Shown: positions 8,533 through 40,763 of the stretch, one piece after another | Position numbering within the stretch: the first letter of the stretch is position 1 | Layout of the letters: each line of letters begins with the position of its first letter | Source: Candidatus Poribacteria bacterium | Lineage (GTDB): Bacteria > Poribacteria > WGA-4E > WGA-3G | Assembly (NCBI GenBank): GCA_965205015.1 | Contig: OZ242029.1 | Span: 640,001 to 704,000 of the forward strand | DNA length: 64,000 bases | Reading direction: 5' to 3' | Program-made: the position numbers and the translations under genes | The notes under the pieces: generated by a model | Databases searched by the model: none | Told to the model about the DNA's origin: nothing | The model's input: only the letters and a program-made list of their open reading frames with translations

Positions 8533-8617
8533 ATCGTTGTCAGTCGTCAGTTGTCGGTTAAGAGGTTCTCGTTTAACCAGATCCCTCTTTAACTGATAAC
8601 CGATAACCGACAACCAT
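8533..8617. repeat. Repeat family A
   Basis: ATCGTTGTCAGTCGTCAGTTGTCGGTTAAGAGG...CCTCTTTAACTGATAACCGATAACCGACAACCAT. Confidence 0.85.
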
Positions 8618-26144: not shown

Positions 26145-26234
26145 GCAGCCCGTAACGAAGTGGAGGGCGGTTCTACAGAAAGGCACTTCATTCATCAAAC
26201 CCGCCTCAACGAACCGCAAGGAATAATTAAAAAA
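26145..26234 (+). repeat. Repeat family B overlapping the 5' end of the transporter ORF
   Basis: GCAGCCCGTAACGAAGTGGAGGGCGG...CGAACCGCAAGGAATAATTAAAAAA. Confidence 0.8.
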
Positions 26235-28208
26235 TTTGAAACTTCCTCGTCGCTCACATCATCACGAATTCCCGCCCACGGTGTCACCCTCAAATCTATT
26301 CTTATTGCTGTTATTCTAATACCGATTAACTGCTACTGGGTCATTGAGATGGAAGTTATTCGGTATTCAGGTCATCCTGTGACGATTTCGCTCTTTTTCA
26401 ATGTGATTTTCAGTCTGTTCTTGGTTATCGGTGTAAACTACCTATTGCGCCGTTTCATCCCGAGCCTCGCATTGGCACAAAGCGAGTTAGTCATTGTTTA
26501 CCTGATGCTTTCCATCGCTTCGGGAATTACGGGGCACGATATGCTTGAGATTTTGGTCCCGATGTTAGGGCATGCCTCCCGTTTCGCTACTCCGGAAAAC
26601 GAATGGCAACAGTTGTTTGTCCCCTTCCTGCCAAAGTGGCTCACCGTTAGCGACACGTCCCTTTTACACGGCTATTATGAGGGTGAGCTTCCTCTCTACA
26701 CAGTTGAAACATTGCTTGGCTGGGCAACGCCGGTCCTCTGGTGGACTGCCTTCATCACTATGTTGATTTTTGGCATGCTTTGCATCAATATAATTGTGCG
26801 TAAACAATGGATCGAACACGAGAAATTAAGTTACCCGATCATCCAACTCCCACTCCAATTGACGGAAACTCCACAGAACCGCCTCTTTCAAAATAAATTG
26901 ATGTGGCTCGGGTTTGGGATTGCTGGCGCGCTTGCGCTGTGGAATGGTGTTAATTTTCTGTATCCGGTTTTACCTGAACTCCGGACACGTGTGCGAAGCT
27001 TCCAAATTTTTACGGAGAGTCCGTGGAACGCTATGGGGAGAATCCCGTTTTCACTCTATCCATTCGCAATTGGACTTGGTTTCTTTATACCTCTTGATCT
27101 CTCGTTTTCATGCTGGTTCTTCTTCTGGTATTGGCGATTCATGCGAGTTCTCGGTGCCGCGCTTGGATTACGGAGTCTACCTCGTTTTCCGTACATGAAC
27201 GAGCAAGCAGCAGGTGGTTATCTCGCGCTATGCGTTTTGGCAATTTGGGCGAGTCGCAGACATCTATTGCATGTAGCGAAAACCGTTGTGGGACTCAATA
27301 CCCAACAGGACAATACTGCGATCAGCGCCTCAGGGCGCGAAACGCAGGAATCGATGTCCTATCGCGGGGCGACGCTCGGTCTTATCGCGGTAATGATATT
27401 TCTTGTGCTGTTCTGCTACTATGGCGGTGCTGAGCTTTGGGTAATGTTCGCATTTTTTGTTATCTATTACATGATTTCGATCGCCATAACTCGGATGCGC
27501 GCAGAACTCGGCACCCCTGTGCATGACCTGCACTACTCCGGTCCTGATGAAATTCTGACTCGGACTGTTGGAACACGGCGATTAGGGAGAGACAACCTTA
27601 TTATGTTTTCGATGTTTTGGTTTATCAATCGTGCGCATCGAAGCCATCCTATGCCGCACCAGCTCGAAGGTTTCAAAATCATGGAACGGACAAACATGAC
27701 GATGAACCGTATCATTTTCGCCTTGACACTTGCGACTATTTTGGGATCATTAGCAGGATTTTGGGCATTAATCGACCGCGGGTATCGGCTCGGCATGGAA
27801 GTACGCGCGTATTGGCCCTCTCTCAGTGCTTTTGGAATAGAACCGTATCGTCGCCTGGCGGGATGGTTGCAAGCCCCAGAAGAGACACTCATCCCTGAAA
27901 GCGGATTTATGGGCATAGGGTTCCTATTAACAACGGTGCTAATGTTCTTTCGCATGCGATTCGTATGGTGGCCATTTCATCCTGCAGGGTTCGCTATCTC
28001 CACGAGTTGGGGTATGAATGTCACGTGGAGCTGCCTCTTCATGAGCTGGTTAATCAAGTGGCTTATTCTTCAGTACGGCGGCGTCGTTCGGCACCGCAAG
28101 ATCGCTCCCTTTTTCTTAGGGTTAATTTTGGGGGAATTTACGGTCGGGAGTCTCTGGACAATCTTAGGGATTATCGCCGGTATTCCGACTTACGGGTTTT
28201 GGGTATAA
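26160..28208 (+). CDS. OPT-like (DUF6785/DUF6784) multi-pass peptide transporter-like protein; start uncertain
   Basis: RKQWIEHEKLSYPIIQLP, RMRAELG.P, WWPFHPAG, FFLGLILGE; many TM helices. Confidence 0.8.
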   Translation: MEGGSTERHFIHQTRLNEPQGIIKKFETSSSLTSSRIPAHGVTLKSILIAVILIPINCYWVIEMEVIRYSGHPVTISLFFNVIFSLFLVIGVNYLLRRFIPSLALAQSELVIVYLMLSIASGITGHDMLEILVPMLGHASRFATPENEWQQLFVPFLPKWLTVSDTSLLHGYYEGELPLYTVETLLGWATPVLWWTAFITMLIFGMLCINIIVRKQWIEHEKLSYPIIQLPLQLTETPQNRLFQNKLMWLGFGIAGALALWNGVNFLYPVLPELRTRVRSFQIFTESPWNAMGRIPFSLYPFAIGLGFFIPLDLSFSCWFFFWYWRFMRVLGAALGLRSLPRFPYMNEQAAGGYLALCVLAIWASRRHLLHVAKTVVGLNTQQDNTAISASGRETQESMSYRGATLGLIAVMIFLVLFCYYGGAELWVMFAFFVIYYMISIAITRMRAELGTPVHDLHYSGPDEILTRTVGTRRLGRDNLIMFSMFWFINRAHRSHPMPHQLEGFKIMERTNMTMNRIIFALTLATILGSLAGFWALIDRGYRLGMEVRAYWPSLSAFGIEPYRRLAGWLQAPEETLIPESGFMGIGFLLTTVLMFFRMRFVWWPFHPAGFAISTSWGMNVTWSCLFMSWLIKWLILQYGGVVRHRKIAPFFLGLILGEFTVGSLWTILGIIAGIPTYGFWV

Positions 28209-28267
28209 CAGTCGTCGAAGGATTTTCGGAGAAACCCGAACCAAAAGTAGTGACCAGACCTAATCGT

Positions 28268-31147
28268 TTAAAAATCGTCAGATCGCGACCCTACTGCCAA
28301 ATTCAGGGGCAATAACAGCAATGTTAGGCTAAACAGGAGCGTCCATTGCCATTGCCATTTGAGGGGTACCATTCCAAAAAATTGCGCTATCGGTTCAACA
28401 TAGAGCGTCGCCAAATGGAGTGCTATAATAACAAATGAAATAATGATGAGACGAGAGTTGGCAAGTACCCTTTGAACCAGCGATTCCCATGGATAACGTA
28501 ACGCTTGCCAACATGTAGCCAACTGCGTGAAAATCAGGGTGGTACACGCAGCGGTTCGCGCGATCGCAATATCCATAGCATTTGGATCTCCCATATCCCC
28601 AACGGAAAGGACATCTTTCATTAGCGTTGAAACACCGAGTGTATCGGACAATGCAGGTGAACGCCACAGGATAAAGAAGAAGGGAATAATTGTCATCAGA
28701 CTAATCGTCAGCGCGCGGCAAACGATGTCCAAGCCTGTCGTTTTTGAAAGGAAACGCGATCCCGAAAACAGCGTTGGACGGTGATGCCGGTTTGTATCGT
28801 TAGCATCCGCAAATATCCGTTCTGTGCCTGTAACGAAGGAGGGTAATAGCGTCAGGAGAAATTGGGTCCAAATTATCTGTGTTAACGTCAATGGCATAGG
28901 CATTTTATAGAGATAGTGTAGGACCGTCCCAAAAGCCAGTGTGAGAAGTAGGGAGAGCGTACAAGAAAAGTTCCACTGCAGAAAACTGGCGGCGTTATGG
29001 TAAGCCTCGCGCGCATGAAGCAGCACATCTCTTACCGCTTGAAAACCGCCCTTGTTAATGAGTCCATCGGCTGCGGCTTGTACAACATGTGATGCCTCGG
29101 ATCTATTCGCAAGTGTAATATCCGCAACCGTCATTGCTCGGAGGTCTATCCGACTTTGGCCCAAAAATCCTACTGCATGTCCTTGACGTTTTAAACTCAG
29201 GACGATATTCCGACGCTGATACCACGTTGGTTGCGAATAAGCAATCCACTTTGCTGTTTCACTATCGAGTTGTTCCCGCGAGACACTGTCAAGTTCCTCC
29301 CTTGACACCACTGCTTTTCGGTTATGGATAAGCCCAAGATCTTTTGCAAGATCGACCGTTTCTTGTTCTTCACCTTCAGTGACGAGGATAATTTTAAGCC
29401 CAGTATCAAGACTCGACTTCAGGATCGCCTTCGTCCGTTCATCGTTGTTGGCGGAAAAACTGATAAACCCTAAAAAGATAGGTGTGTATTCCATCTCTTG
29501 GGGTTTCAGAATAACATCAGAGGAATGAAAGGCGACGCCATAAGCCTGTGCTTTCGTACTCATCAGATAGTCTATGATTTCACTATATATTTCGTACCTA
29601 TCGTCCGATAAAGGGGTCGCTTCGCCATTAATGAGTACATAACCGCAAGTGTCAAGCACTGCTCGGGCGTCTCCAAAGATGACATTAAGATAATCCTCTG
29701 GTGCTGACTCAAAGACTTGCATTTGATACGGATAGTTCCGTGTGAAGGGATACGTATTCACCAAAGGAAGCCGAGTCCTCACACTTTCGAGTTGGTAGCC
29801 GAGTTTCTTCACATCCTTTTGAATGGCGATCTGGGGGGACAGTCCCATTTCGGAAGACATAGCTTCTGAAGTTGTCCGTAAGTTGAGGAGGTCGGCTCTG
29901 TCTGTATCCTGCCCATCAGAAGTACCGAGTCCCGCAGTGAACACTAAGTGTGGAGCACCCTGTGGAATTTTTCCGCCGGGTGACATTGACTCAATAGCTT
30001 TTTGTCGCTCTGTAGGGGTAAGCTCCTTGAGAGAATCTAACCAAGCGTTCCATGTTTTGCCATCCACCAATTGTTCATCAACGAAAAGATTTGAAATTGT
30101 TAGGGAGCGTGTCGTGGCAATCCCATTTTCATTGGCAAAAACAGTGGTAACGCGACTTAGTTTTTCAAGGCTACGTGAATTGCGTAGCACAACCCCTTTT
30201 TCCAACAATCTTTGGGCGTGTTTAGAAAAGAATAAACGGATCACTTGAATTACATCTTGCGGGGCAGATGCGACAGCAAATAGCATGCCTAAATGGATGA
30301 GAGATTGCCAATTGGTAGCCCGATTCTGATATTCAAACCACCACGCGATCGCAACGGCCACACCTCCCACAACCAGACCGATAATTTTTATTGTGGTATA
30401 TAAATCTCGTGTCTCACTTTCTGCGCGGGTATTCGCGATGATCGTTGGACGTGGATCCGGACGTTGCTTCCATATCTCCAATTGCCTCCCTGTTTGCACA
30501 ACGATCGCAAGTCCATGCCCTGCTACAACGTATGTCCCGCCGAACGCCATGTTTTTCTGTTTTTGAGGGGGTACAGCACTATCTTGAATATCCACCGCGA
30601 CCTTTTGCACAGGTTCCTCGGTCCCAAAGAGTCCTGATTCGTCAATCATCAGCCCTTCTGATTCAATGATCCTGGCATCAGCAGGTACATAGTCCCCTGC
30701 GCTGAAAGGGAGTAGATCCCCAGGCACGATGTCCTCTGGCGCGCACGCATCTAATTTCCCCTGTCGAATCACCTTGATACTATGTACCATACGCCTATTA
30801 TGGCGGGTATCACGGATGCGAATGCGATGTTCCATCATGTATGCAGACACGGCATGAATAACCAGAACGGCTCCAACAACACTGACTGCCTGAAGCGTAA
30901 CGTCGCTTGTACCGTTGGTCAAGGAAACACTCAGGATACCTGTGGCGACCCCTAAAACAATCACACGCCACGTGAGCAACGATTTAAGAAATGCTACAAA
31001 AGGAAACGCGTTTTCCTCTGGAGACACCTCGTTTTTACCGTGCCGTGCCTTCGCCTTTTGAAAGGCTTCCGCACTTAACCCCTGATCCATGTTGGAGTCG
31101 AATTTATTTAGTATTGATGCAATATTTTCCGCATGAAAATTTGACAT
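28268..31147 (-). CDS. P-type (P2A-like) cation ATPase homologue lacking catalytic motifs
   Basis: GLS..E......G.NE, IVPGD, GDYVPADAR, NMAFGGT.V..G.G..IV..TG, PLT..QI.W and the 10-TM layout are retained; DKTGT, TGES and GDGxND are absent. Confidence 0.85.
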   Translation of the reverse strand: MSNFHAENIASILNKFDSNMDQGLSAEAFQKAKARHGKNEVSPEENAFPFVAFLKSLLTWRVIVLGVATGILSVSLTNGTSDVTLQAVSVVGAVLVIHAVSAYMMEHRIRIRDTRHNRRMVHSIKVIRQGKLDACAPEDIVPGDLLPFSAGDYVPADARIIESEGLMIDESGLFGTEEPVQKVAVDIQDSAVPPQKQKNMAFGGTYVVAGHGLAIVVQTGRQLEIWKQRPDPRPTIIANTRAESETRDLYTTIKIIGLVVGGVAVAIAWWFEYQNRATNWQSLIHLGMLFAVASAPQDVIQVIRLFFSKHAQRLLEKGVVLRNSRSLEKLSRVTTVFANENGIATTRSLTISNLFVDEQLVDGKTWNAWLDSLKELTPTERQKAIESMSPGGKIPQGAPHLVFTAGLGTSDGQDTDRADLLNLRTTSEAMSSEMGLSPQIAIQKDVKKLGYQLESVRTRLPLVNTYPFTRNYPYQMQVFESAPEDYLNVIFGDARAVLDTCGYVLINGEATPLSDDRYEIYSEIIDYLMSTKAQAYGVAFHSSDVILKPQEMEYTPIFLGFISFSANNDERTKAILKSSLDTGLKIILVTEGEEQETVDLAKDLGLIHNRKAVVSREELDSVSREQLDSETAKWIAYSQPTWYQRRNIVLSLKRQGHAVGFLGQSRIDLRAMTVADITLANRSEASHVVQAAADGLINKGGFQAVRDVLLHAREAYHNAASFLQWNFSCTLSLLLTLAFGTVLHYLYKMPMPLTLTQIIWTQFLLTLLPSFVTGTERIFADANDTNRHHRPTLFSGSRFLSKTTGLDIVCRALTISLMTIIPFFFILWRSPALSDTLGVSTLMKDVLSVGDMGDPNAMDIAIARTAACTTLIFTQLATCWQALRYPWESLVQRVLANSRLIIISFVIIALHLATLYVEPIAQFFGMVPLKWQWQWTLLFSLTLLLLPLNLAVGSRSDDF

Positions 31148-31154
31148 GTTTTTA

Positions 31155-31218
31155 CTGGTTATCGGTTATCAGTTACAAGAGGGTGTTGTTAAACGAAAAC
31201 CTCTTAACCAACACCTAT
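31155..31218. repeat. Repeat family A
   Basis: GGTTATCGGTTATCAGTTACAAGAGG...CCTCTTAACC. Confidence 0.75.
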
Positions 31219-31244
31219 TAAGAGCGGTGCCCAGATTTAATCGC

Positions 31245-32162
31245 CTAAAAAACGCTTGCTCCGTGAGCATCCGGCTTCAAAATTTTAATATCGGATGCAA
31301 TCTCGTGCTTTTTAAAGGCAGTTTGCATCTTCTCAGCAACCTGTTCGGTATGCTCCAGACAATAGGCTGCGATAGTTGGTCCTGCTCCACTCAAAGCAAC
31401 GCTAAGGGCGCCAGCGGTGGTAGCGGCTTCTGCGACATCATCAAATCCTGGAATCAGTGAAGTACGATAAGGTTGATGCAACCTATCCTTCATTGCGACA
31501 CGCAACATTTCAAATTGTCTCGTGGCAATACTGGCGATTAGCAGTGTGCTCCGACTTGTATTGTAGATTGCATCTGCAAAACCGACTGATGTCGGTAATA
31601 CCCCGCGTGCTTGTTCCGTTGACAGTGGAAAATCAGGAATCGCCAATACAATCGAAAGGAGGGACGGACATTCTAATCGAACGGTATGAACCTGAGCATC
31701 CTCCTGCGCTGAAACGACGAGTCCACCATACAGTGAGGCGGCGACGTTATCCGGATGCCCTTCCAGTTCTGTTGCAAAATTGAGAAGTTCTTTGTCAGAA
31801 AATGGAGTGCCGCAGAGTGTGTTTGCAGTAAGCAACCCACCAAGAATAGCTGTTCCACTGCCGCCGAGACCACGAATCGCCGGGATCCCATTTTCGATCT
31901 GCAATCTGAAGCCTTTCGGACGTTTCGCGCCGCTGCGATGGAAAACGAGTTCTACCGCTTGAAACGCGACATGCGCCGGCGTACTCGGTATTTTATCGGC
32001 ATCTACACCGCTTACAATCACCTCAGTGCCGGTTTCAGAAGGTTCTAACGTAACGGTACTATAGAGTTGGAGAGCAAGCCCTAACACGTCGAATCCGGGT
32101 CCCAGATTCGTCGTGCTTGCCGGAATCCGCGCGGTAACTTTTCGGTTAAAAGTAGGAGGCAT
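31245..32162 (-). CDS. thrB: Homoserine kinase
   Basis: PASTTNLGPGFD, RGLGGS, EGHPDN, LHQPYR, LSGAGPT. Confidence 0.95.
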   Translation of the reverse strand: MPPTFNRKVTARIPASTTNLGPGFDVLGLALQLYSTVTLEPSETGTEVIVSGVDADKIPSTPAHVAFQAVELVFHRSGAKRPKGFRLQIENGIPAIRGLGGSGTAILGGLLTANTLCGTPFSDKELLNFATELEGHPDNVAASLYGGLVVSAQEDAQVHTVRLECPSLLSIVLAIPDFPLSTEQARGVLPTSVGFADAIYNTSRSTLLIASIATRQFEMLRVAMKDRLHQPYRTSLIPGFDDVAEAATTAGALSVALSGAGPTIAAYCLEHTEQVAEKMQTAFKKHEIASDIKILKPDAHGASVF

Positions 32163-32272
32163 TTTTAATTATACCTTGCGGAGGAACACCGGACGTTTCG
32201 AGTTTGACGTGCGTTCCTCATATCCGCCTGCGTGTTTTTGCTTGGGTATTTCTGCGTATTGTTGCAGGCTAC
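32163..32272 (-). repeat. Repeat family B abutting the thrB start codon
   Basis: GTAGCCTGCAAC...GCAGGCGGATATGAGGAACGCACGTCAAACTCGAAACGTCCGG...CCGCAAGGTATAATTAAAA-ATG. Confidence 0.85.
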
Positions 32273-32351
32273 GGTTTTTCAGTCTACAGTTTTCAGTGCG
32301 CTACGCTTTCAGTTTTGGGTTAACTGAAATCTCTTGTAACTGATAACTATT
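32273..32351. repeat. Repeat family A
   Basis: (TTTTCAG)n ... AACTGATAACTAT. Confidence 0.65.
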
Positions 32352-33542: not shown

Positions 33543-33660
33543 ATTGGCTATCGGCTGCCGGCTATCGGAACCATCGGAGACCACCGGTAAAGAGGTTTTC
33601 GTTTAACAATACCCTCTTACCGACTGCTGATGGCTGATAGCCATTCTTGCTGACGGCTAT
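33543..33660. repeat. Repeat family A
   Basis: GGCTATCGGCTGCCGGCTATCGG...AAGAGG...CCTCTTACCGACTGCTGATGGCTGATAGCC...GACGGCTAT. Confidence 0.8.
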
Positions 33661-34700
33661 TCTGCTTGCATGATCGCTCCGGTGGAACTCGCTACCCACA
33701 CGTTTTTTCCGTCAAGCACAAAAACTTTGACTAATTTTTCCTTGGAACCTTCAAGTTCCCAGGTTGCGCCACCATCACTGGTACGTAGGATGGCACCAAC
33801 GCCAAAGTCACCCCCAACAGCCCAACCGTTCTTCTCATCTGCGAACCCAACACTTCGTAGTGTCTCCTCTGTGCCACTGTCTTGGGGTTTCCATGATTCG
33901 CCGCCATCAGTGGTATGAAGAATTACACCATTTTCACCAACAGCCCAGCCCATTGACGCATCAAGGAAAAAGATATCTTCAAGGATATCCTCTCTGTTGG
34001 TCGCCTGCGTGACCCACGTCTGTGCGCCGTCCGTTGTTTTCTGAATCAAGGCATGTTGACCTTGCGTACTCGGACTCACGCGGACTCCGGCAACCCATCC
34101 CGTCTGTTCGTCAAGAAATTGAATGGCGTTGTACATATTTGCGTCATCATCGCCAACCGCACCGAGTTGTCCACCTTGAAGAACCTTCCATGAACGCCCA
34201 GCATTTTTGGTAGAAAGGATGGTGTCACTTTCTCCTACTGCGTACCCGACCTCTTTATTGACAAAATAGATACCTTTAAGTCCGTTGCCAACCTTGCTGG
34301 TTTGCATTTCCCAGTCTCTACCGTTATCCGTACCGACTATCGTACCGTTTGCGCCGACAGCCCAACCGTGTTTATCATCGAGGAAGTACACTTCTGCTAA
34401 ATCGGCAGGGATTTTGATTTCCGATTTTTGCCACGATTTACCACCATCCATGGTATATCCGATGAAACCTGGATTCTCAAAGTCTTCAAAGGATGCGGCA
34501 CCGACTACCCAACCAGTACTCTTGCCCGTAAAAGCGATTGACATATAATCTCGAACTTCTGGATCGCGTTCCTGTAAAACGTTCCAATTTCCTAACGCCG
34601 GTAGAACGGTCCCCAAAATACTGAGGGTCGCGAGTAGCATTATTCCCGTCAGTAGGCGTGACTCAAGCCTGTTCATTGTTATCGTATCTCCTTTTTTCAT
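33657..34700 (-). CDS. YCF48/BNR-repeat beta-propeller exported protein
   Basis: Signal peptide; repeated F.D...GWAVG..G.IL.T.DGG..W. Confidence 0.9.
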   Translation of the reverse strand: MKKGDTITMNRLESRLLTGIMLLATLSILGTVLPALGNWNVLQERDPEVRDYMSIAFTGKSTGWVVGAASFEDFENPGFIGYTMDGGKSWQKSEIKIPADLAEVYFLDDKHGWAVGANGTIVGTDNGRDWEMQTSKVGNGLKGIYFVNKEVGYAVGESDTILSTKNAGRSWKVLQGGQLGAVGDDDANMYNAIQFLDEQTGWVAGVRVSPSTQGQHALIQKTTDGAQTWVTQATNREDILEDIFFLDASMGWAVGENGVILHTTDGGESWKPQDSGTEETLRSVGFADEKNGWAVGGDFGVGAILRTSDGGATWELEGSKEKLVKVFVLDGKNVWVASSTGAIMQAE

Positions 34701-34770
34701 TGGTTTTCAGTTTTCAGTTAAGAGACTTTTGTTTAGCAAAACTTTCTTGTAACTGTTAACTGATAACTAT
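34699..34770. repeat. Repeat family A
   Basis: GGTTTTCAGTTTTCAGTTAAGAG...AACTGTTAACTGATAACTAT. Confidence 0.7.
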
Positions 34771-34913
34771 TTAACCCCGAATTAAAAATTAAGTCAATAA
34801 ATTTCTCCCAAGCACCCAAGCGACAGGAACGTTGAAAGCAATACGGATTCTACCCAGCAAAAATTAAAACGCCATATCTTTGCGAGGATGCGTTTTAATG
34901 CTATGTAGATCCC

Positions 34914-36302
34914 CTACTTTGCCACAATTAAAGTCCCAGTCTTAAAACTCTCTCCCACTTGAAGTTGGTAGACGTAAATGCCGCTTTCCACGATTTCACC
35001 GGATTCGTCGTGTCCATCCCAAATCAACTCCGTTTCACCCGGTAATGCCGTCAAAGTCTTAACGAGCATTCCGTCAATGTCAAAGATCAACACCGTGAAT
35101 TCACCCGATGTTTCTTCAAGGGCGCGCGCGGGAAAGACAACCCGATTGAAATCCTCGTCTGGAGAAAGCGGTGTAAAAGGATTCGGATAGGGTTTGTCAA
35201 AAATACGAAGCCTTTTTTCTGCAGGGATGGATTCGTTATTTGCCTCGTCAATGGCGATGACAGCATACGTAAAGCTGCCTATAGGTAGTGAGCGGTCATC
35301 AATAAATTTATATTCTGTTTTTAACTCATTGATTTCTGCAAGCGTAGTAAGTCCCTCCGCAATTCGGTAGGCGATTACATCACGACTGACGCTCGGTTTC
35401 CACAAAATTTCGACACCATCGCTTGATGGAGTGATGCTAAGCATTGTCGGTGGCTCTGGGGCAGCAGTATCCGGTGATACATTTACCGTTTGTATCGATG
35501 AGCGTTCCGACTGCAAGTAAAGCGTTTTGTAAGCGGTAATCTGATAGGTATGGTTTCCTGGAGGAACGTTTATATCGCGAAACGTCGTCGACGAACGGTT
35601 TTCGACCTGAATCGTAGAATCGTCCTTGTCTCTGTAGATGAGATAACCGTTGACATCTGAATCCGTTGATTTCTGCCAACGGAGGGTTACATCGTTTTCT
35701 CCAGTTTCATCGGCTTCAGCAGTGAAACCAGTCACCGGGTCAGGCGGCACATTCGGAATAACCTGTAAAGTAAAATCGTCGTTGTTGAGTTTTCCGTCTG
35801 CCTGCCCTGGTCGGATGAATTCACCGATGGGACCGTCTTGAAGATTGCGAAGACGGGCTCTGAAAACCGCCTCTGGAATCAGTGTATTCGGTGTCTGACA
35901 CTCAAAGGTAATTTCATAGAGCGAGTTCTGAAAATCAACGATAGCATCCGCGAGTTCAACGCGCAGAACACTTCCACCTGAGACGACAGCCCTTGCGACG
36001 ATTTGGTTGCCATCCCGTGAAATACCCCTGAAAAAAGAGGATTGGGTCAGAAATCCCCGTGGCATCGTGATTTCAATCGTTTTAATTTCTTCACCCGGCT
36101 CCGCCAGGGACCGGTCAATTACAAGCGTCACGAGCAATGGCACGGTTGAACTCGCAGGAACGACGCCTTCTTTTTGTCCTACGACGTTAATCTCTCCAAC
36201 AGAGGTAACCGCTCCATAACCCTTAGCGGAAACCAAGAGCAGACTCCCGATAAATATTAAAACAATGGATGTGTTTTTCATTTTTGACCAGTGATTTTCC
36301 AT
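34914..36302 (-). CDS. Exported fibronectin-III protein with a C-terminal FlgD-Ig/T9SS-CTD-like domain
   Basis: Signal peptide; two FN3-like repeats; YPNPFTP...WDGHDESG..V.SGIYVY...GTLIVAK. Confidence 0.8.
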   Translation of the reverse strand: MENHWSKMKNTSIVLIFIGSLLLVSAKGYGAVTSVGEINVVGQKEGVVPASSTVPLLVTLVIDRSLAEPGEEIKTIEITMPRGFLTQSSFFRGISRDGNQIVARAVVSGGSVLRVELADAIVDFQNSLYEITFECQTPNTLIPEAVFRARLRNLQDGPIGEFIRPGQADGKLNNDDFTLQVIPNVPPDPVTGFTAEADETGENDVTLRWQKSTDSDVNGYLIYRDKDDSTIQVENRSSTTFRDINVPPGNHTYQITAYKTLYLQSERSSIQTVNVSPDTAAPEPPTMLSITPSSDGVEILWKPSVSRDVIAYRIAEGLTTLAEINELKTEYKFIDDRSLPIGSFTYAVIAIDEANNESIPAEKRLRIFDKPYPNPFTPLSPDEDFNRVVFPARALEETSGEFTVLIFDIDGMLVKTLTALPGETELIWDGHDESGEIVESGIYVYQLQVGESFKTGTLIVAK

Positions 36303-36393
36303 GATGAAATTTTTGCCTTCTTATATCGGATAGCAGGGCAATCCTGCAATCAGGTAAATCACAGTTCAGACCTCTGCCGACTGCCGATAATGC

Positions 36394-37341
36394 TTAAAGC
36401 AAAAGATTAAGAGAGAACCGTTGTGTTGTATTGTCTCGGAAATCCCCACTTAGCAGTTGAAACCCATAATCGATCTGGAGGGCAGTACCACTGATTGGAA
36501 GTTTAGCACTTCCACCGAAACTCAGAGTCGTTGCCGAACTGCTCCCACTTTTCACACCATAACCGCCGCGAACAGCAATGGATTTATTCAACCAGACTTC
36601 CATTCCTGTGCGTATATAAATTTCGCCATTGCGAGAAGCAACTTCAAAACTCCCGAGACTGCCTCTCAACAAGTTGCTGACTGCCGCACCTTGCGCGCTT
36701 ATCTCCGCGATAGACGCGAGTCTGTACGCCAAACCAGCCCGAATGTTTAACGGCACAGGATCTGTTTGGGTGTCAGATATACTCATATTTGCGGGGAGCA
36801 GATTCTCTACCGATGCGCCAAGACTCAAACTCTGGACAGGTTTGGCAATGACGCCGAGATCAAAAGAAACGGCTGAACTGGAGGTTTTGACGAAATATGG
36901 ATTCTCTGCGACGAATTCGTTTGTCGCGTCAAAAGAGGTCCGGAAGAGTTTCAGATTTGCTCCAATTGCGAATTGCTCGAAAAGCGCATTTCCGTAGGAG
37001 AGACGCACCGTCTGTTCATGATAAACTTCAGAGTCTTCCGCCAAGTCCCCGACACCCGCCCCAATCGCCCCCATTCTTCCGAGCGGAATAACGCCACTGA
37101 GGGCATTATAGGTAATGAGCCCCCTAAAGCGTTGTGCGTGCGTAGCACCGAGATGGATCCCATCCATATAACCTAATCCTGCGGCATTGTAATCTGCGGC
37201 GTTGTTATCATCGGCGAGCGCGACGAACGCTCCACCCAAACCTAACGGCCGCGCGCCAACCCCAATATTATTGAATGTAGCAGCGGCGACAGCAGGTAAA
37301 AGCAACACGATGAGTAGAATCAGACAGAATATATGTTTCAA
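36394..37341 (-). CDS. PorV/UPF0164-like outer-membrane beta-barrel protein
   Basis: GVGARPLGLGGAFVALADD..A..YNAAGL plug motif followed by amphipathic strands. Confidence 0.82.
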   Translation of the reverse strand: MKHIFCLILLIVLLLPAVAAATFNNIGVGARPLGLGGAFVALADDNNAADYNAAGLGYMDGIHLGATHAQRFRGLITYNALSGVIPLGRMGAIGAGVGDLAEDSEVYHEQTVRLSYGNALFEQFAIGANLKLFRTSFDATNEFVAENPYFVKTSSSAVSFDLGVIAKPVQSLSLGASVENLLPANMSISDTQTDPVPLNIRAGLAYRLASIAEISAQGAAVSNLLRGSLGSFEVASRNGEIYIRTGMEVWLNKSIAVRGGYGVKSGSSSATTLSFGGSAKLPISGTALQIDYGFQLLSGDFRDNTTQRFSLNLLL

Positions 37342-37430
37342 TTTTCTAATTTTCCTTGCGGATAAGTTATAGCGTTTGTGAATTTAACGGCTTTCGTGTT
37401 CGAGTCGCACTCCATTTCATTAGGTGCTGC
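37342..37430 (-). repeat. Repeat family B abutting the TTG start of the PorV-like gene
   Basis: GCAGCACCTAATGAAATGGAGTGCG...CCGCAAGGAAAATTAGAAAA-TTG. Confidence 0.75.
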
Positions 37431-37486
37431 TGAATGCTGATCGCTGATAACCGATGCCTCCGAAAACCGATATCTTGATAACAGAT

Positions 37487-38149
37487 TTAATTCAATCTAC
37501 CCGTCATCGGTACAAAACGGACAGGGATAATCTCAGTGGTTTCGAGAGATTGTACGGAATTCTCATCGGTTTGAAGTCCTTTTCGAATTAAAAGGAGATT
37601 TTGTTCAGAACCACCGACGGGGATCACCATCCTACCGCCTGGTTTGAGCTGCTGAATGAGCCATTCTGGCACGTTCGGAGGCGCTGCCGCGACAAGCACA
37701 GCATCATAAGGGGCGTGTTCTTGCCAACCATAATACCCATCCCCTTTTTTCAGATAAATGTTCCGATAGTTGAGTGCCTCTAACCGCGCTTTCGCACTTT
37801 CGAGAAGTCCGGATATAATTTCAACAGAATAAACATCTCTCGCCAATTCTGCCAGTACCGCTGTTTGATAGCCACACCCCGTTCCGATCTCAAGTACTTT
37901 TGAAGTTGAGGTGAGCTCGAGCAAATCCGTCATCAACGCGACGATATAGGGTTGCGAGATCGTTTGGTCACAATCAATCGGTAACGCCCCATCCTGATAT
38001 GCGACATTCAGATACTGCGGTTTTACAAACAGGTGCCGCTCCACCTTCCGCATAACAGCAAGCACTTGCGGATTGTGGATACCACGCGCTTCAATCTGAT
38101 TCCGAACCATTTTGCGACGGAGTGCCGCGTAGTTCTTGGCGAAAAGCAT
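37487..38149 (-). CDS. pcm: Protein-L-isoaspartate O-methyltransferase
   Basis: QTISQPY, VLEIGTGCGYQ, APYD, QLKPGG, VRFVPM. Confidence 0.95.
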   Translation of the reverse strand: MLFAKNYAALRRKMVRNQIEARGIHNPQVLAVMRKVERHLFVKPQYLNVAYQDGALPIDCDQTISQPYIVALMTDLLELTSTSKVLEIGTGCGYQTAVLAELARDVYSVEIISGLLESAKARLEALNYRNIYLKKGDGYYGWQEHAPYDAVLVAAAPPNVPEWLIQQLKPGGRMVIPVGGSEQNLLLIRKGLQTDENSVQSLETTEIIPVRFVPMTGRLN

Positions 38150-38156
38150 CTTTTTA

Positions 38157-38274
38157 GTAGCGGTCAGTCGTCAGTACGGATTTTTTCAAAAATCCTTTCA
38201 GTTTTCGTAAGGGTTGGGTTACCCAACCCTTACAGAGATGTTCGTTTAACTGATAACTGATAACTGACAACTAT
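38157..38274. repeat. Composite family A element enclosing a perfect GTAA palindrome (38207-38233)
   Basis: GTAAGGGTTGGGT-T-ACCCAACCCTTAC between heptamer arms; contains the sppA stop codon. Confidence 0.8.
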
Positions 38275-40763
38275 TCCACACTTATATGATAAGGCATGAG
38301 AAGAAATAATCGATGTTTCCTGATTGTATTTAGGAGCCTCGCGGTAGTACTCAAGCCCCCGTACTGTGTAATAAATTGCAGCCGAGACTTAGTTTCCACA
38401 TCTCTATCCTCTATGCTCAGGTTTCCTATAGACGAAACCTGTGGGGCAATGTTCCTAAAGGAATTGGGGGTTACAAACCCTTTCCACGAGACTAATGGAA
38501 GTCCGAGATTGTTGAGGAGTTGCGCCATCCATGTCTTTTTCGGAAATTCGACGATCTCAACTGATTCTCCTGCCAATCCTGCGTGCGCTCGCGCGGTTGC
38601 GATTGCGAGGCTTAAACCGCCCAATTCGTCCACAAGTCCGTTTTCCTTCGCCTGTCTGCCTGACCAGATGCGTCCTCGCCCAAGTCTATCTACATCCTCG
38701 ACTGTGAGTTCGGCTCGCCCGAGCGCAACTTTTTCAATGAAATCGTCATAAATTTCTTTAATCTGTTTCTGTACGATTGCTTTTTCAGCAAGCGAATAGT
38801 CTCCGTAATCGGTGTAAAAATCAGCGTGCTCGCCCCGTTTGAGGATCTCTTTATGGATACCGAGTTTCTCATAAAGCCCCTTGAAGCTATACTTACCCCC
38901 AACAACGCCGATAGACCCCGTAATCGTTCCGGGTTCAGCAACGATCACATCCGCGGGAGCCGCGATATAATAGCCACCGGATGCCGCCACATCTCCCATT
39001 GAGACCACGAACGGTTTAACCTCTTTAAGTTTTACCAACTCACGCCATATAGCGTCAGCAGCAACAACGAGCCCACCACCGCTGTCAATTCGCAACACAA
39101 CTGCTTTTATGGAATCGTCGTCTTTTACCCGTTTGATAATACCCGTGATTGTGTCCGCTCCCATCACCTGAGTGCCCATTAGCGGATCAACGAAACTATC
39201 GCCTGTCAACATCAATCCTTCAGCCTTAATGATGGCGACCTTCGGTTTTGGCACCTGCCACTCTTGTAAGGAGAGTCCATTTCTTAGGTATCCACTCAGT
39301 GGTACCAAATCGGTTTTGGCATCAGTGAGTTCAGTCACAACATCATGCAATTCATCTTCATAGACGAGTCTGTCCACCAGTTCAACGGCAAAGGCTTGAC
39401 GTGCTGTGTAAGGTCCGGCATCGATACGTTCTTTGACGTCTTCGTGCGTCCACCCACGTCCGTCTGCGATTGCCGCGACGAGCTGCGCATAGAGGTCATC
39501 CAAAATGATGTTTTGGATTTTTCGGTGTGCTTCGGACATCTCGCGCCGGGTGAACGCCTCGGATGCGGATTTGTATTCACCGAGATGCTCAAGATCCGCC
39601 CGAATACCGAGCATGTCTAAGGCACCTTTGTAGAAGGAGTGCTCTGTGCGTATCCCAATTAATCGGACCTCAGCAGACGGATGGATCAGGATACCGTCAC
39701 ACGCAGACGCGACAATATAGTCGCCAGTAGAACAATTAGAGAGATAGCAGAGAACAACACGTCCCGATTCCCTAAAATCCAAGATAGCATCTGCCATCTC
39801 TTGAAGCTGAGCGATACCGTACCCGCTCCCATCAATGCGGACAAGAACCCCAGCGACATCGTCATCCCATTTTGCGATAGGTAGGACCCGTTTGACGGCG
39901 CGCATCGGTAGGTCAAGGAATGTCCTACGGCGTGGCAGCGGTTTGGTTTTCGGCGCGTTGGAAAAATGAAAATAGCCGACCCCCGACCATGCTTCTCGAT
40001 TATTGTCAAAGGCATTGCCCGTTCCAAATCCCCAATTTCCGATATTTACACCGAAACGGACATCAAAACTCAAGTCGTTATTTACGGCACCACGGAGCAT
40101 GAATTCGCGAATAGGGCGGACCTCCAGCGCATAACGGAGTTCTACACCCTCAATTCCTTGCGTTTTCCGCATGTCAATTGAGAGGGTTGCGCGCCACGTC
40201 CCCGGCCGGAGTGCCATCCCTAAATCATAAGTACGTCCGAGTTTTTCTGCAAGCAATTTAGGACGATTGAGATCGCGTGCCGTTGCCCCAATTGAGAAAT
40301 AACGCCGCCGATACATTAAACCCATGGAGAGTGAACGGAACCTGTCGTATCCCTTATCGTCCGAATTCATCCAACTATAACTTGTTCCCCAATAGAGGGC
40401 ACTTCCGAGGTGGTACCCACCCGAAAACGTATAGCGCGTGAAGTCGGTATCGGCATCGGCGGTACCGAATTCTATACCGAAACCTGCGCCAGGGATAGCA
40501 AGGAAGAAAGCATCATCGCCTGCCCAATCGCTTTGATATGTTCGGAGGTAGTATAAATTCAGCCCGCGTCCCGCAGCAAGTCCGGATGGATTAAAGAAGG
40601 TGGCGAGGGCATCATCGCTCATAGCAATGGAACTTGCAGGCAAATGGGTCCGCGCCTTTGGCGGCGCGGCAACACAAAATGTGCTTATCCCACAAATGAA
40701 CACGACGGAGATAACATTCCTACCAATGCGCCCTAAATGCTCACTCAATAAAGATGAAACCAT
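38271..40763 (-). CDS. sppA: Signal peptide peptidase SppA (two S49 domains) with an N-terminal beta-barrel-like domain
   Basis: GEYKSA Lys, LRIDSGGG, VAASGGY Ser, TGSIGV, GRIWSG; N-terminal DD....FNPSGL plus beta-strands. Confidence 0.9.
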   Translation of the reverse strand: MVSSLLSEHLGRIGRNVISVVFICGISTFCVAAPPKARTHLPASSIAMSDDALATFFNPSGLAAGRGLNLYYLRTYQSDWAGDDAFFLAIPGAGFGIEFGTADADTDFTRYTFSGGYHLGSALYWGTSYSWMNSDDKGYDRFRSLSMGLMYRRRYFSIGATARDLNRPKLLAEKLGRTYDLGMALRPGTWRATLSIDMRKTQGIEGVELRYALEVRPIREFMLRGAVNNDLSFDVRFGVNIGNWGFGTGNAFDNNREAWSGVGYFHFSNAPKTKPLPRRRTFLDLPMRAVKRVLPIAKWDDDVAGVLVRIDGSGYGIAQLQEMADAILDFRESGRVVLCYLSNCSTGDYIVASACDGILIHPSAEVRLIGIRTEHSFYKGALDMLGIRADLEHLGEYKSASEAFTRREMSEAHRKIQNIILDDLYAQLVAAIADGRGWTHEDVKERIDAGPYTARQAFAVELVDRLVYEDELHDVVTELTDAKTDLVPLSGYLRNGLSLQEWQVPKPKVAIIKAEGLMLTGDSFVDPLMGTQVMGADTITGIIKRVKDDDSIKAVVLRIDSGGGLVVAADAIWRELVKLKEVKPFVVSMGDVAASGGYYIAAPADVIVAEPGTITGSIGVVGGKYSFKGLYEKLGIHKEILKRGEHADFYTDYGDYSLAEKAIVQKQIKEIYDDFIEKVALGRAELTVEDVDRLGRGRIWSGRQAKENGLVDELGGLSLAIATARAHAGLAGESVEIVEFPKKTWMAQLLNNLGLPLVSWKGFVTPNSFRNIAPQVSSIGNLSIEDRDVETKSRLQFITQYGGLSTTARLLNTIRKHRLFLLMPYHISVE

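Follow-up and report, generated by a model that had tools for sequence, protein, structure and literature searches.

A probable pseudoenzyme descended from a P2-type cation pump in Candidatus Poribacteria

The open frame and its replaced motifs

We analyzed a 64,000-nucleotide stretch of a Candidatus Poribacteria genome (contig OZ242029.1, positions 640,001 to 704,000; called the window here) and focused on a gene for a P-type ATPase homologue located on the minus strand at 28268–31147. The coding sequence starts with ATG, encodes 959 amino acids followed by a stop codon, and contains zero internal stops, in agreement with the intact frame described in an initial annotation of this DNA. An open frame of 2880 nt with P-type homology is far beyond chance. 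The encoded protein, designated P0001, aligned with P2-type pumps over its whole length. The ATG at 31147 was supported as the start codon because the N-terminal sequence MSNFHxENIASILNKF was nearly invariant among the orthologues of 46 loci.

P-type ATPases are defined by an aspartyl-phosphate cycle. The former phosphorylation loop of P0001 reads VFANENGIAT (residues 336–345, 30113–30142; all positions in this gene refer to the minus strand) and stood opposite ICSDKTGTLT in the HMMER alignment to human SPCA1 (8iww_A, E 3.1e-42). Asn339, encoded by AAT at 30131–30133, replaces the phosphorylated Asp, and Glu340 occupies the position of the adjacent Lys. In the same alignment, DESGLFGTE (residues 169–177, 30617–30643) was opposite DESSLTGET, APQDV (residues 295–299, 30251–30265) was opposite IPEGL, LVTEG (residues 588–592, 29372–29386) was opposite MITGD, and GQSRID (residues 663–668, 29144–29161) was opposite GDGVND. 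The initial annotation had listed these catalytic replacements, including the Asn codon, and its positions were exact.

Alignment with canonical pumps revealed further losses. KGAPE in the nucleotide-binding (N) domain is FGDAR (29666–29680), by which the Lys becomes Phe491, DPPR is ANND, and the R560 position is Gln. The Ca-site ligand positions N768, E771, N796, T799, and D800 correspond to T730, L733, Q762, L765, and T766; the SERCA numbering of these ligands and the numbering of the N-domain pocket residues (the KGAPE Lys and Arg560) are what we take to be the usual ones. The K684 position is occupied by Arg645 (29213–29215), and D707 is retained as Asp668. By the catalytic definition of the superfamily, P0001 lacks the phosphorylated Asp, TGES, TGD/GDGxND, K684, and the nucleotide-pocket Lys/Arg560. 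The acidic or polar Ca2+ ligands that characterize a P2A Ca2+-ATPase are likewise missing, as the positions of E309, N768, E771, N796, T799, and D800 in membrane helices M4, M5, and M6 read Q/H/Y/G/S, T, L, Q, L/S/T, and T across P0001 and its relatives.

Three Pfam families scored above their cut-offs, namely E1-E2_ATPase (PF00122, 79.8 bits), Cation_ATPase_C (PF00689, 56.5 bits), and Cation_ATPase_N (PF00690, 33.2 bits), the last at the N-terminal segment of residues 1–49 (31001–31147). Cation_ATPase (PF13246) reached 19.9 bits, just under its cut-off of 21.7, and Hydrolase (PF00702) was not found among the matches listed for P0001 at E <= 0.1. All NCBIfam equivalog cut-offs were far above the score of P0001, as with TIGR01522 for PMR1-type Ca pumps (200.5 bits against 798.3) and TIGR01116 (133.8 against 703.4). 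The generic P-type model TIGR01494 was the sole NCBIfam model passed (72.6 against 62.3). The best sequence matches in the PDB were human SPCA1, Listeria LMCA1, and SERCA2, with E-values of 3e-42 to 1e-37.

An AlphaFold2 model built from a 101-sequence alignment had a predicted local distance difference test (pLDDT) score of 84.9 and a predicted template modelling (pTM) score of 0.77. It contains ten membrane helices, and M4 is broken at residues 294–298 around a conserved proline. Low confidence was confined to residues 411–435 and the last seven C-terminal residues. All 50 matches listed by Foldseek were P2-type pumps. The best template modelling (TM) scores were obtained with E1-type states (SPCA1 CaE1 8iwp, 0.74/0.79; SERCA E1 with sarcolipin 4h1w, 0.76), and the E1 forms of Na,K-ATPase 8jfz and 8jbk scored 0.75. 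E2 and E2P states mostly scored approximately 0.61, with one E2 entry (5zmw) at 0.72. The ESM Atlas returned ordinary Ca-ATPase clusters only. By fold and homology, P0001 belongs to the P-type superfamily, as it has actuator (A), phosphorylation (P), and N domains, approximately ten membrane helices, and significant family profiles. The preserved domain order and transmembrane segments described earlier were thus recovered, both in the Pfam domains above cut-off and in a pump-shaped model with ten helices that matched SPCA1 with a TM-score of up to 0.79.

Conservation and selection across Poribacteria

A search of 5.8 billion proteins retrieved at least 120 homologues with 62–100% identity, and all organisms named for the listed homologues were Candidatus Poribacteria. 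Among the 121 sequences used for counting, Asn at position 339 and Glu at position 340 were each present in 119, and F174, F491, E591, R645, D668, L733, and Q762 were each present in all 121. T730 was found in 120 sequences and T766 in 117. The M4 proline was retained in 116, the next residue, at the Glu309 position, was hypervariable (Q56/H30/Y12/G12/S9), and position 298 was Asp or Asn (D89/N32). Position 664, equivalent to D703, was never Asp (Q95/E25/H1). The Glu183 position of TGES was Thr, Ala, Ser, or Ile, and the N706 position was variable. Most replacement residues are themselves fixed, and the conservation of the substitutions that had been proposed as a check was confirmed for N339 and for the invariant residues above.

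The frame was open in all 46 loci fetched from species-representative genomes, of which 44 were full-length and 2 were cut by contig ends. We estimated the ratio of nonsynonymous to synonymous substitution rates (dN/dS, omega) by the Nei-Gojobori method from 47 coding sequences, retaining the 588 of 1081 pairs with dS of 0.05–1.5. The median was 0.12 (range 0.07–0.29), well below 1 as the initial annotation had anticipated.

Purifying selection acts in all domains and is strongest in M5–M6 and the P domain. The M5–M6 core (residues 701–775) was the most constrained part of P0001 (omega 0.058), and its former Ca-ligand region at 28838–28975 comprises WNFSCTLSLLL (28943–28975) and IIWTQFLLTLLPS (28838–28876). 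The other membrane regions gave 0.087 (M7), 0.107 (M8–M10), 0.19 (M3–M4), and 0.235 (M1–M2). In the headpiece, omega was 0.08 in the P domain, the second half of which (residues 581–700, 29048–29407; 0.081) carries LVTEG, Arg645, and GQSRID. It was 0.11 in the A domain, with FGTE instead of TGES in the core (residues 119–240, 30428–30793), and 0.14 in the N domain homologue (residues 357–580, 29408–30079). Residues 405–437 reached 0.445 and contain a disordered, fast-evolving loop (residues 411–435, 29843–29917; pLDDT <50). The extra-cytoplasmic M7–M8 loop (residues 829–854, 28586–28663; pLDDT 71–75) had an omega of 0.205. It holds an insertion of approximately 22 residues (alignment columns 926–950), found only in the group of 936–976 amino acids containing the window protein. 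P0001 thus combines clear homology to an enzyme family and lost catalytic residues with retention under purifying selection, as is characteristic of a pseudoenzyme.

Some residues were invariant in the family and absent from canonical pumps. They were located at the start of the N domain (F355, V356, W366, W369, L370, and P395) and in the M8–M9 cytoplasmic loop (Q881, R884, W887, E888, and R893). These family-specific positions (355–370, 395, and 881–893) are interface candidates.

When 1.8 billion cluster representatives were scanned in full with HMMER, relatives emerged at 56, 47, 36, 35, and 26–28% identity, and canonical DKTGT pumps appeared only below these. The intermediate relatives were all degenerate and were used to seed a profile search; all organisms named for the groups recovered by it were Poribacteria. 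The nearest DKTGT pumps were approximately 22–27% identical with scores of at most 214 bits, and the family scored 267–2108 bits. Every relative whose motifs were read, at 19–90% identity, was degenerate, and no close relative with canonical motifs was found in this range. The motifs were VCVDEIGTFT, SVPDGI, MITDK, and GRRPLD in group B, VCVDEVGNFM, AIPEGI, TITDR, and GKSPLD in group C, and FCSDEKGIAS, NESALFGSS, ATPHDL, and GQNAND in group D. A group near that of the window protein had FCANEEGLS. Groups B and C retained Glu or Asp adjoining the M4 proline, along with His and Asn in M6.

A search of the GTDB phylum holding locus L001 (E <= 1e-20) matched 171 of 175 genomes, most of them once. 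By identity, the 150 matches listed fell into classes of 62–90% (65 genomes), 53–57% (5), 42–46% (39), 34–38% (39), and 28–31% (2). The 148 matches at 34–90% had no stop inside the open frame, and the reported stops sit beyond the ends of shorter orthologues. The most divergent forms occurred in basal genomes of the same phylum. Two basal genomes (G004 and G005) carry a less degenerate form (L082 and L079, respectively), in which TGES and the acidic ion ligands are gone. L082 reads ICSNKKGIMT, without the Asp but with the neighbouring Lys retained, keeps the Lys of the N-domain TKG, and has GDSAND, which is near GDGxND. This form may mark the beginning of the same decay or may have degenerated independently. 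G005 additionally carries a canonical DKTGT pump (L087).

In the wider family (216 sequences), Glu stood at the K352 position in 210 and Phe at the T181 position in 214, and the D703 position was Q114, K59, E27, R15, or H1 and never Asp. The Asp nucleophile was present in 133 of 133 canonical comparators. In a tree of 62 rows, 46 degenerate sequences lay on one side of a fully supported branch, and group C branched first among them, followed by B, D, and the group of the window protein. The residue at the nucleophile position (D37, N21, E3, S1) switched at least ten times on this tree, and all non-Asp residues fell among its 47 degenerate rows. To judge from the sequences, an Asp that orthologues exchange for Asn and regain does not serve as a catalytic nucleophile, and the loss of function would therefore predate the split of these groups. 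Asn339 is one state of a position that needs only a small polar residue.

We also looked for other P-type genes. Three complete related genomes had two E1-E2_ATPase genes each and no more. Among 111 genomes of the three nearest groups (G068–G175 and G001–G003), 103 had exactly two PF00122 genes, six had one, and two had three. The second, shorter gene was a P1B copper-type pump in the one genome checked (TIGR01525, 618.8 bits). In the window, tblastn with this copper pump and with a canonical P2 pump as queries detected no P-type gene besides that of P0001. The active paralogue that the initial annotation had suggested looking for was not found as a P2-type gene in the related genomes searched.

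Interpretation and rival explanations

P0001 very probably descends from a P2A-type (SPCA/LMCA1/SERCA-like) cation pump and has lost its catalytic activity. The complete architecture of a pump is present: an N-terminal tail, three headpiece domains (A, P, and N), and ten membrane helices, with the proline kink in M4. The replaced parts are the aspartyl-phosphate nucleophile, TGES, the Mg2+/phosphate ligands, the Lys of the adenine pocket, and every acidic Ca2+ ligand. Such a protein would be unable to run the E1–E1P–E2P–E2 cycle or to pump Ca2+, and the family is most likely a pseudoenzyme derived from a P2-type pump that serves as a non-catalytic membrane protein. Selection keeps the pump homologue across sponge-associated Poribacteria, and it therefore presumably has some other membrane job. 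As a non-enzymatic membrane protein, P0001 may still use the mechanical link from the headpiece to M4–M6. This link is probably what is preserved because the P domain and M5–M6 are the most constrained. We tentatively prefer a partner-binding or regulatory scaffold that rests in an E1-like shape, at somewhat less than an even chance. The initial annotation had proposed a non-pumping role rather than decay, and conservation, dN/dS, and the lack of canonical close relatives support this; the specific choice among sensor, scaffold, passive carrier, and regulatory partner found no support.

The P2A Ca2+/Mn2+ ATPases (human SPCA1, 8iwp/8iww; Listeria LMCA1, 6zhf/6zhh; SERCA) are the best sequence and fold matches of P0001. 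They share its domain order, ten helices, M4 proline kink, VPGD, PAD, the DES of the A domain, and D707. However, identity is approximately 18–22%, and P0001 lacks the Asp nucleophile, TGES, TGD/GDGxND, the KGAPE Lys, and the acidic Ca ligands. P4-ATPase-like domains fused to guanylyl cyclases in ciliates and apicomplexans have degenerate catalytic residues and a non-pumping role; P0001 differs from these eukaryotic modules in being a stand-alone protein. The engineered mutants SERCA D351N, Na,K-ATPase D369N, and H,K-ATPase D386N form no phosphoenzyme and are trapped in an E1-like state, according to the part of PMC13322241 drawn on here. They carry the substitution of P0001 at the same position, and the model of P0001 is closest to E1 states. 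The mutants have a single change with ATP and ion binding intact, whereas the whole catalytic and ion-binding apparatus of P0001 is replaced, naturally and anciently.

Several points weigh against an inactive pump homologue with a new role. That P0001 neither binds nor hydrolyzes ATP is what we infer from its motifs. Asp is retained in 82 of the 216 family sequences, which are orthologues in three groups (B, C, and D), and the 62-row tree came from a quick search with long-branch warnings. The choice of conformational state by AlphaFold2 is untrustworthy, and hence the apparent E1-like shape is not strong evidence. Motif loss alone is no proof of inactivity because ERMA/TMEM94 is described as transporting Mg2+ without TGES or GDGVND, in the passages of PMC13322241 cited above. 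On the same 311 pairs, the omega of the gene (0.127) exceeded that of six of seven neighbour genes (0.036–0.085; the seventh was 0.119), so that the constraint is real but somewhat looser than on housekeeping enzymes. A conserved partner gene was not identified in the neighbourhood comparison of the close loci and 20 deeper loci. Expression is only hinted at by contigs from RNA libraries because these show neither strand nor level and may include DNA carry-over.

The mode of action could differ from that of a scaffold. We consider it possible, if doubtful, that the ancestral P2-type pump of the phylum turned early into an ATP-independent conformational device, with a self-filled pocket, an E1-like rest, and control of M4–M6, leaving most lineages without an active P2-type pump. 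The former Mg2+/phosphate pocket would be occupied by side chains of the protein itself. Two groups have Lys or Arg where D703 would be and the others have Gln or Glu, and the K352 and K684 positions carry Glu and Arg. With the headpiece held in a single E1-like state, the protein would report on or control the M4–M6 core as a gated conduit or a transducer for a partner. The main alternative to a scaffold, unlikely in itself, is that the membrane domain has become an ATP-independent conduit, a passive or gated path through which protons or a solute, neutral or monovalent, would pass, with the headpiece as its gate. The low omega of M5–M6 (0.058), the M4 proline kink retained in 116 of 121 sequences, the fixed uncharged polar residues at the former ion site (T730, 120/121; Q762, 121/121; T766, 117/121), and the carboxylate or amide at position 298 (D89/N32) are consistent with such a path, as are the Glu or Asp beside the M4 proline and the M6 His and Asn of groups B and C. 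The palytoxin-opened channel form of Na,K-ATPase (9vj0, TM-score 0.75) was among the better structural matches, although other E1 states were likewise. However, the residue at the Glu309 position varies widely even between close relatives, two former ligand positions are hydrophobic (L733 and L765), and there is no single conserved binding site because the ion-site residues vary between groups. A third possibility, a dedicated subunit in a complex with the convergent DUF6785/DUF6784 membrane protein encoded at 26160–28208, which would resemble the service of KdpB to a channel-like partner, is improbable. The two genes are adjacent, convergent, and 59 nt apart in 44 of 45 close loci and adjacent in 8 of 8 sampled loci of the 42–57% identity groups, and the neighbour gene, which encodes a polytopic membrane protein, is strongly constrained (omega 0.042). 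However, they are not adjacent in 12 of 12 sampled loci at 34–38% identity that hold the pump homologue, and the convergent orientation rules out co-transcription. Moreover, adjacency carries little information because the whole block of approximately 12 genes is syntenic in close genomes.

A still-active atypical ATP-driven transporter with non-canonical chemistry, similar to ERMA/TMEM94, is highly improbable. ERMA/TMEM94 is a protein of the eukaryotic endoplasmic reticulum with a P-type fold, DKQGI for DKTGT, GSSANL for GDGVND, and no TGES, and it is still reported as an Mg2+ transporter whose uptake is Asp-dependent and abolished by D427N (same passages of PMC13322241). It resembles P0001 in having a P-type fold with degenerate signatures. 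In the Poribacteria family, the P domain ranks with the best-conserved regions (omega 0.08), Asp is retained in orthologues of groups B, C, and D, Arg645 preserves the positive charge of K684 in 121 of 121 sequences, and D668 is invariant, all of which would suit residual chemistry. However, ERMA/TMEM94 retains the Asp and the adjacent Lys where P0001 has Asn-Glu, and it is eukaryotic, not a close relative, and absent from the PDB sequence matches listed for P0001. Residual ATPase activity of this kind is unlikely because, as far as that source describes it, ERMA needs the Asp that is absent or drifting in the Poribacteria family, where 119 of 121 close homologues have Asn at this position and orthologues switch among D, N, E, and S at least ten times. 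Glu takes the place of the adjacent Lys in 210 of the 216 family sequences, none of which has Asp at the position of the Mg2+ ligand D703. All 121 close homologues carry Phe for the adenine-pocket Lys. P0001 itself has Gln at the R560 position and ANND for DPPR, and PF00702 is missing from its listed matches. Finally, a pseudogene in slow decay or a functionless annotation artefact might be suspected from the loss of all catalytic motifs and an omega above that of most neighbours. We rejected this explanation, which has next to no chance of being correct unless the orthologues are misassembled, on the basis of the open frames in 46 of 46 loci, the omega of 0.12, the fixed replacements, and the 148 of 150 listed matches without an in-frame stop. 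The confident fold of the model (pLDDT 84.9) also argues against decay.

Naturally dead full-length P-type members under selection have barely been documented in bacteria. No publication on this Poribacteria family was found in full-text searching, with supplements outside its scope, and catalytically dead members are unmentioned in the passages searched of a 2023 review (PMC10654040). The features new here are the phylum-wide, mostly single-copy spread, the graded degeneracy, the switching among D, N, E, and S, the lack of an active P2-type paralogue in related genomes, and the per-domain selection. The graded series is a natural experiment that separates structural from catalytic pump residues and addresses the uses of a pump scaffold without ATP. 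It also bears on the debate on ERMA/TMEM94, namely how much of the canonical motif set a working P-type fold requires. If the conformational device described above is correct, it would be the first case in bacteria in which an entire P-type pump has come to serve as a non-enzymatic machine, and the nested lineages, from L082 (GDxxND and the N-domain Lys) to the form in the window, would record the order in which parts became dispensable.

The source names of several related proteins (P0008, P0028, P0093, P0125, and others) are "cation-transporting P-type ATPase" or "Ca2+-transporting ATPase". These public pump names are probably a functional misannotation. Because public records use them, a calcium pump that Poribacteria probably lack may be assigned to them when the metabolism of sponge symbionts is reconstructed.

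Neighbouring genes, transcription and repeats

The genes located 5′ of the pump homologue on the same strand encode a GHMP (homoserine-kinase-like, thrB-like) kinase, a class I/II aminotransferase, and a Ycf48/BNR-like protein. On the plus strand, the gene at 26160–28208 encodes a 682-amino-acid polytopic membrane protein with DUF6785 (547.9 bits) and DUF6784 (118.6 bits), and it converges on the pump homologue, 59 nt from its stop codon. Its adjacency in 44 of 45 close loci was counted where the contig passes the 3′ end of the pump-homologue gene. The order of kinase, pump homologue, and DUF6785 gene was kept in nearly all 46 close loci, and approximately 12 flanking genes were equally syntenic. 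In the 20 deeper loci, the upstream trio of BNR, aminotransferase, and kinase genes was present in 16 and the DUF6785 gene in 8, all eight at 42–57% identity. We judged this conservation of gene order to be phylogenetic inertia and weak evidence for a partnership. Longer fused forms were not found among proteins of 1680–4795 amino acids, which is weak evidence in itself.

Upstream, at 33657–40763 on the minus strand, is an envelope- or secretion-flavoured run of genes that is syntenic with the pump homologue in close relatives. It encodes a Ycf48/BNR-repeat protein, a protein with fn3 and FlgD-Ig domains, a PorP/SprF-like protein (weak, 22.4 bits), and an 830-amino-acid S49 (SppA-like) peptidase.

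Scans for promoters and terminators gave counts not above those of shuffled sequence. In a sponge metatranscriptome (X1), contigs 95–97% identical to the pump homologue were found at 28442–28993 and 30762–31242, and every gene bin had some depth. The contig at 30762–31242 (95% identical) takes in 386 nt from the start of the gene and all of the 97-nt spacer, ending 3 nt before the stop codon of the kinase gene. Either read-through of kinase-gene transcripts or DNA carry-over could account for it. Bins without contig cover were located at 27674–28341 and 31682–32015, from which we draw no meaning.

A short hairpin-forming intergenic repeat, AAGAGG...TTAAACGAAAACCTCTT, occurs at 31177–31209, 33586–33618, and 8560–8576 (also 31165–31200 / 32312–32347). 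The window holds three copies of it, where chance would give 0.01. The intergenic regions at approximately 26145–26237, 31158–31209, and 32161–32279 showed raised contig depth and mutual joints in all three runs, as would be given by a dispersed element similar to repetitive extragenic palindromes (REP) or miniature inverted-repeat transposable elements (MITE).

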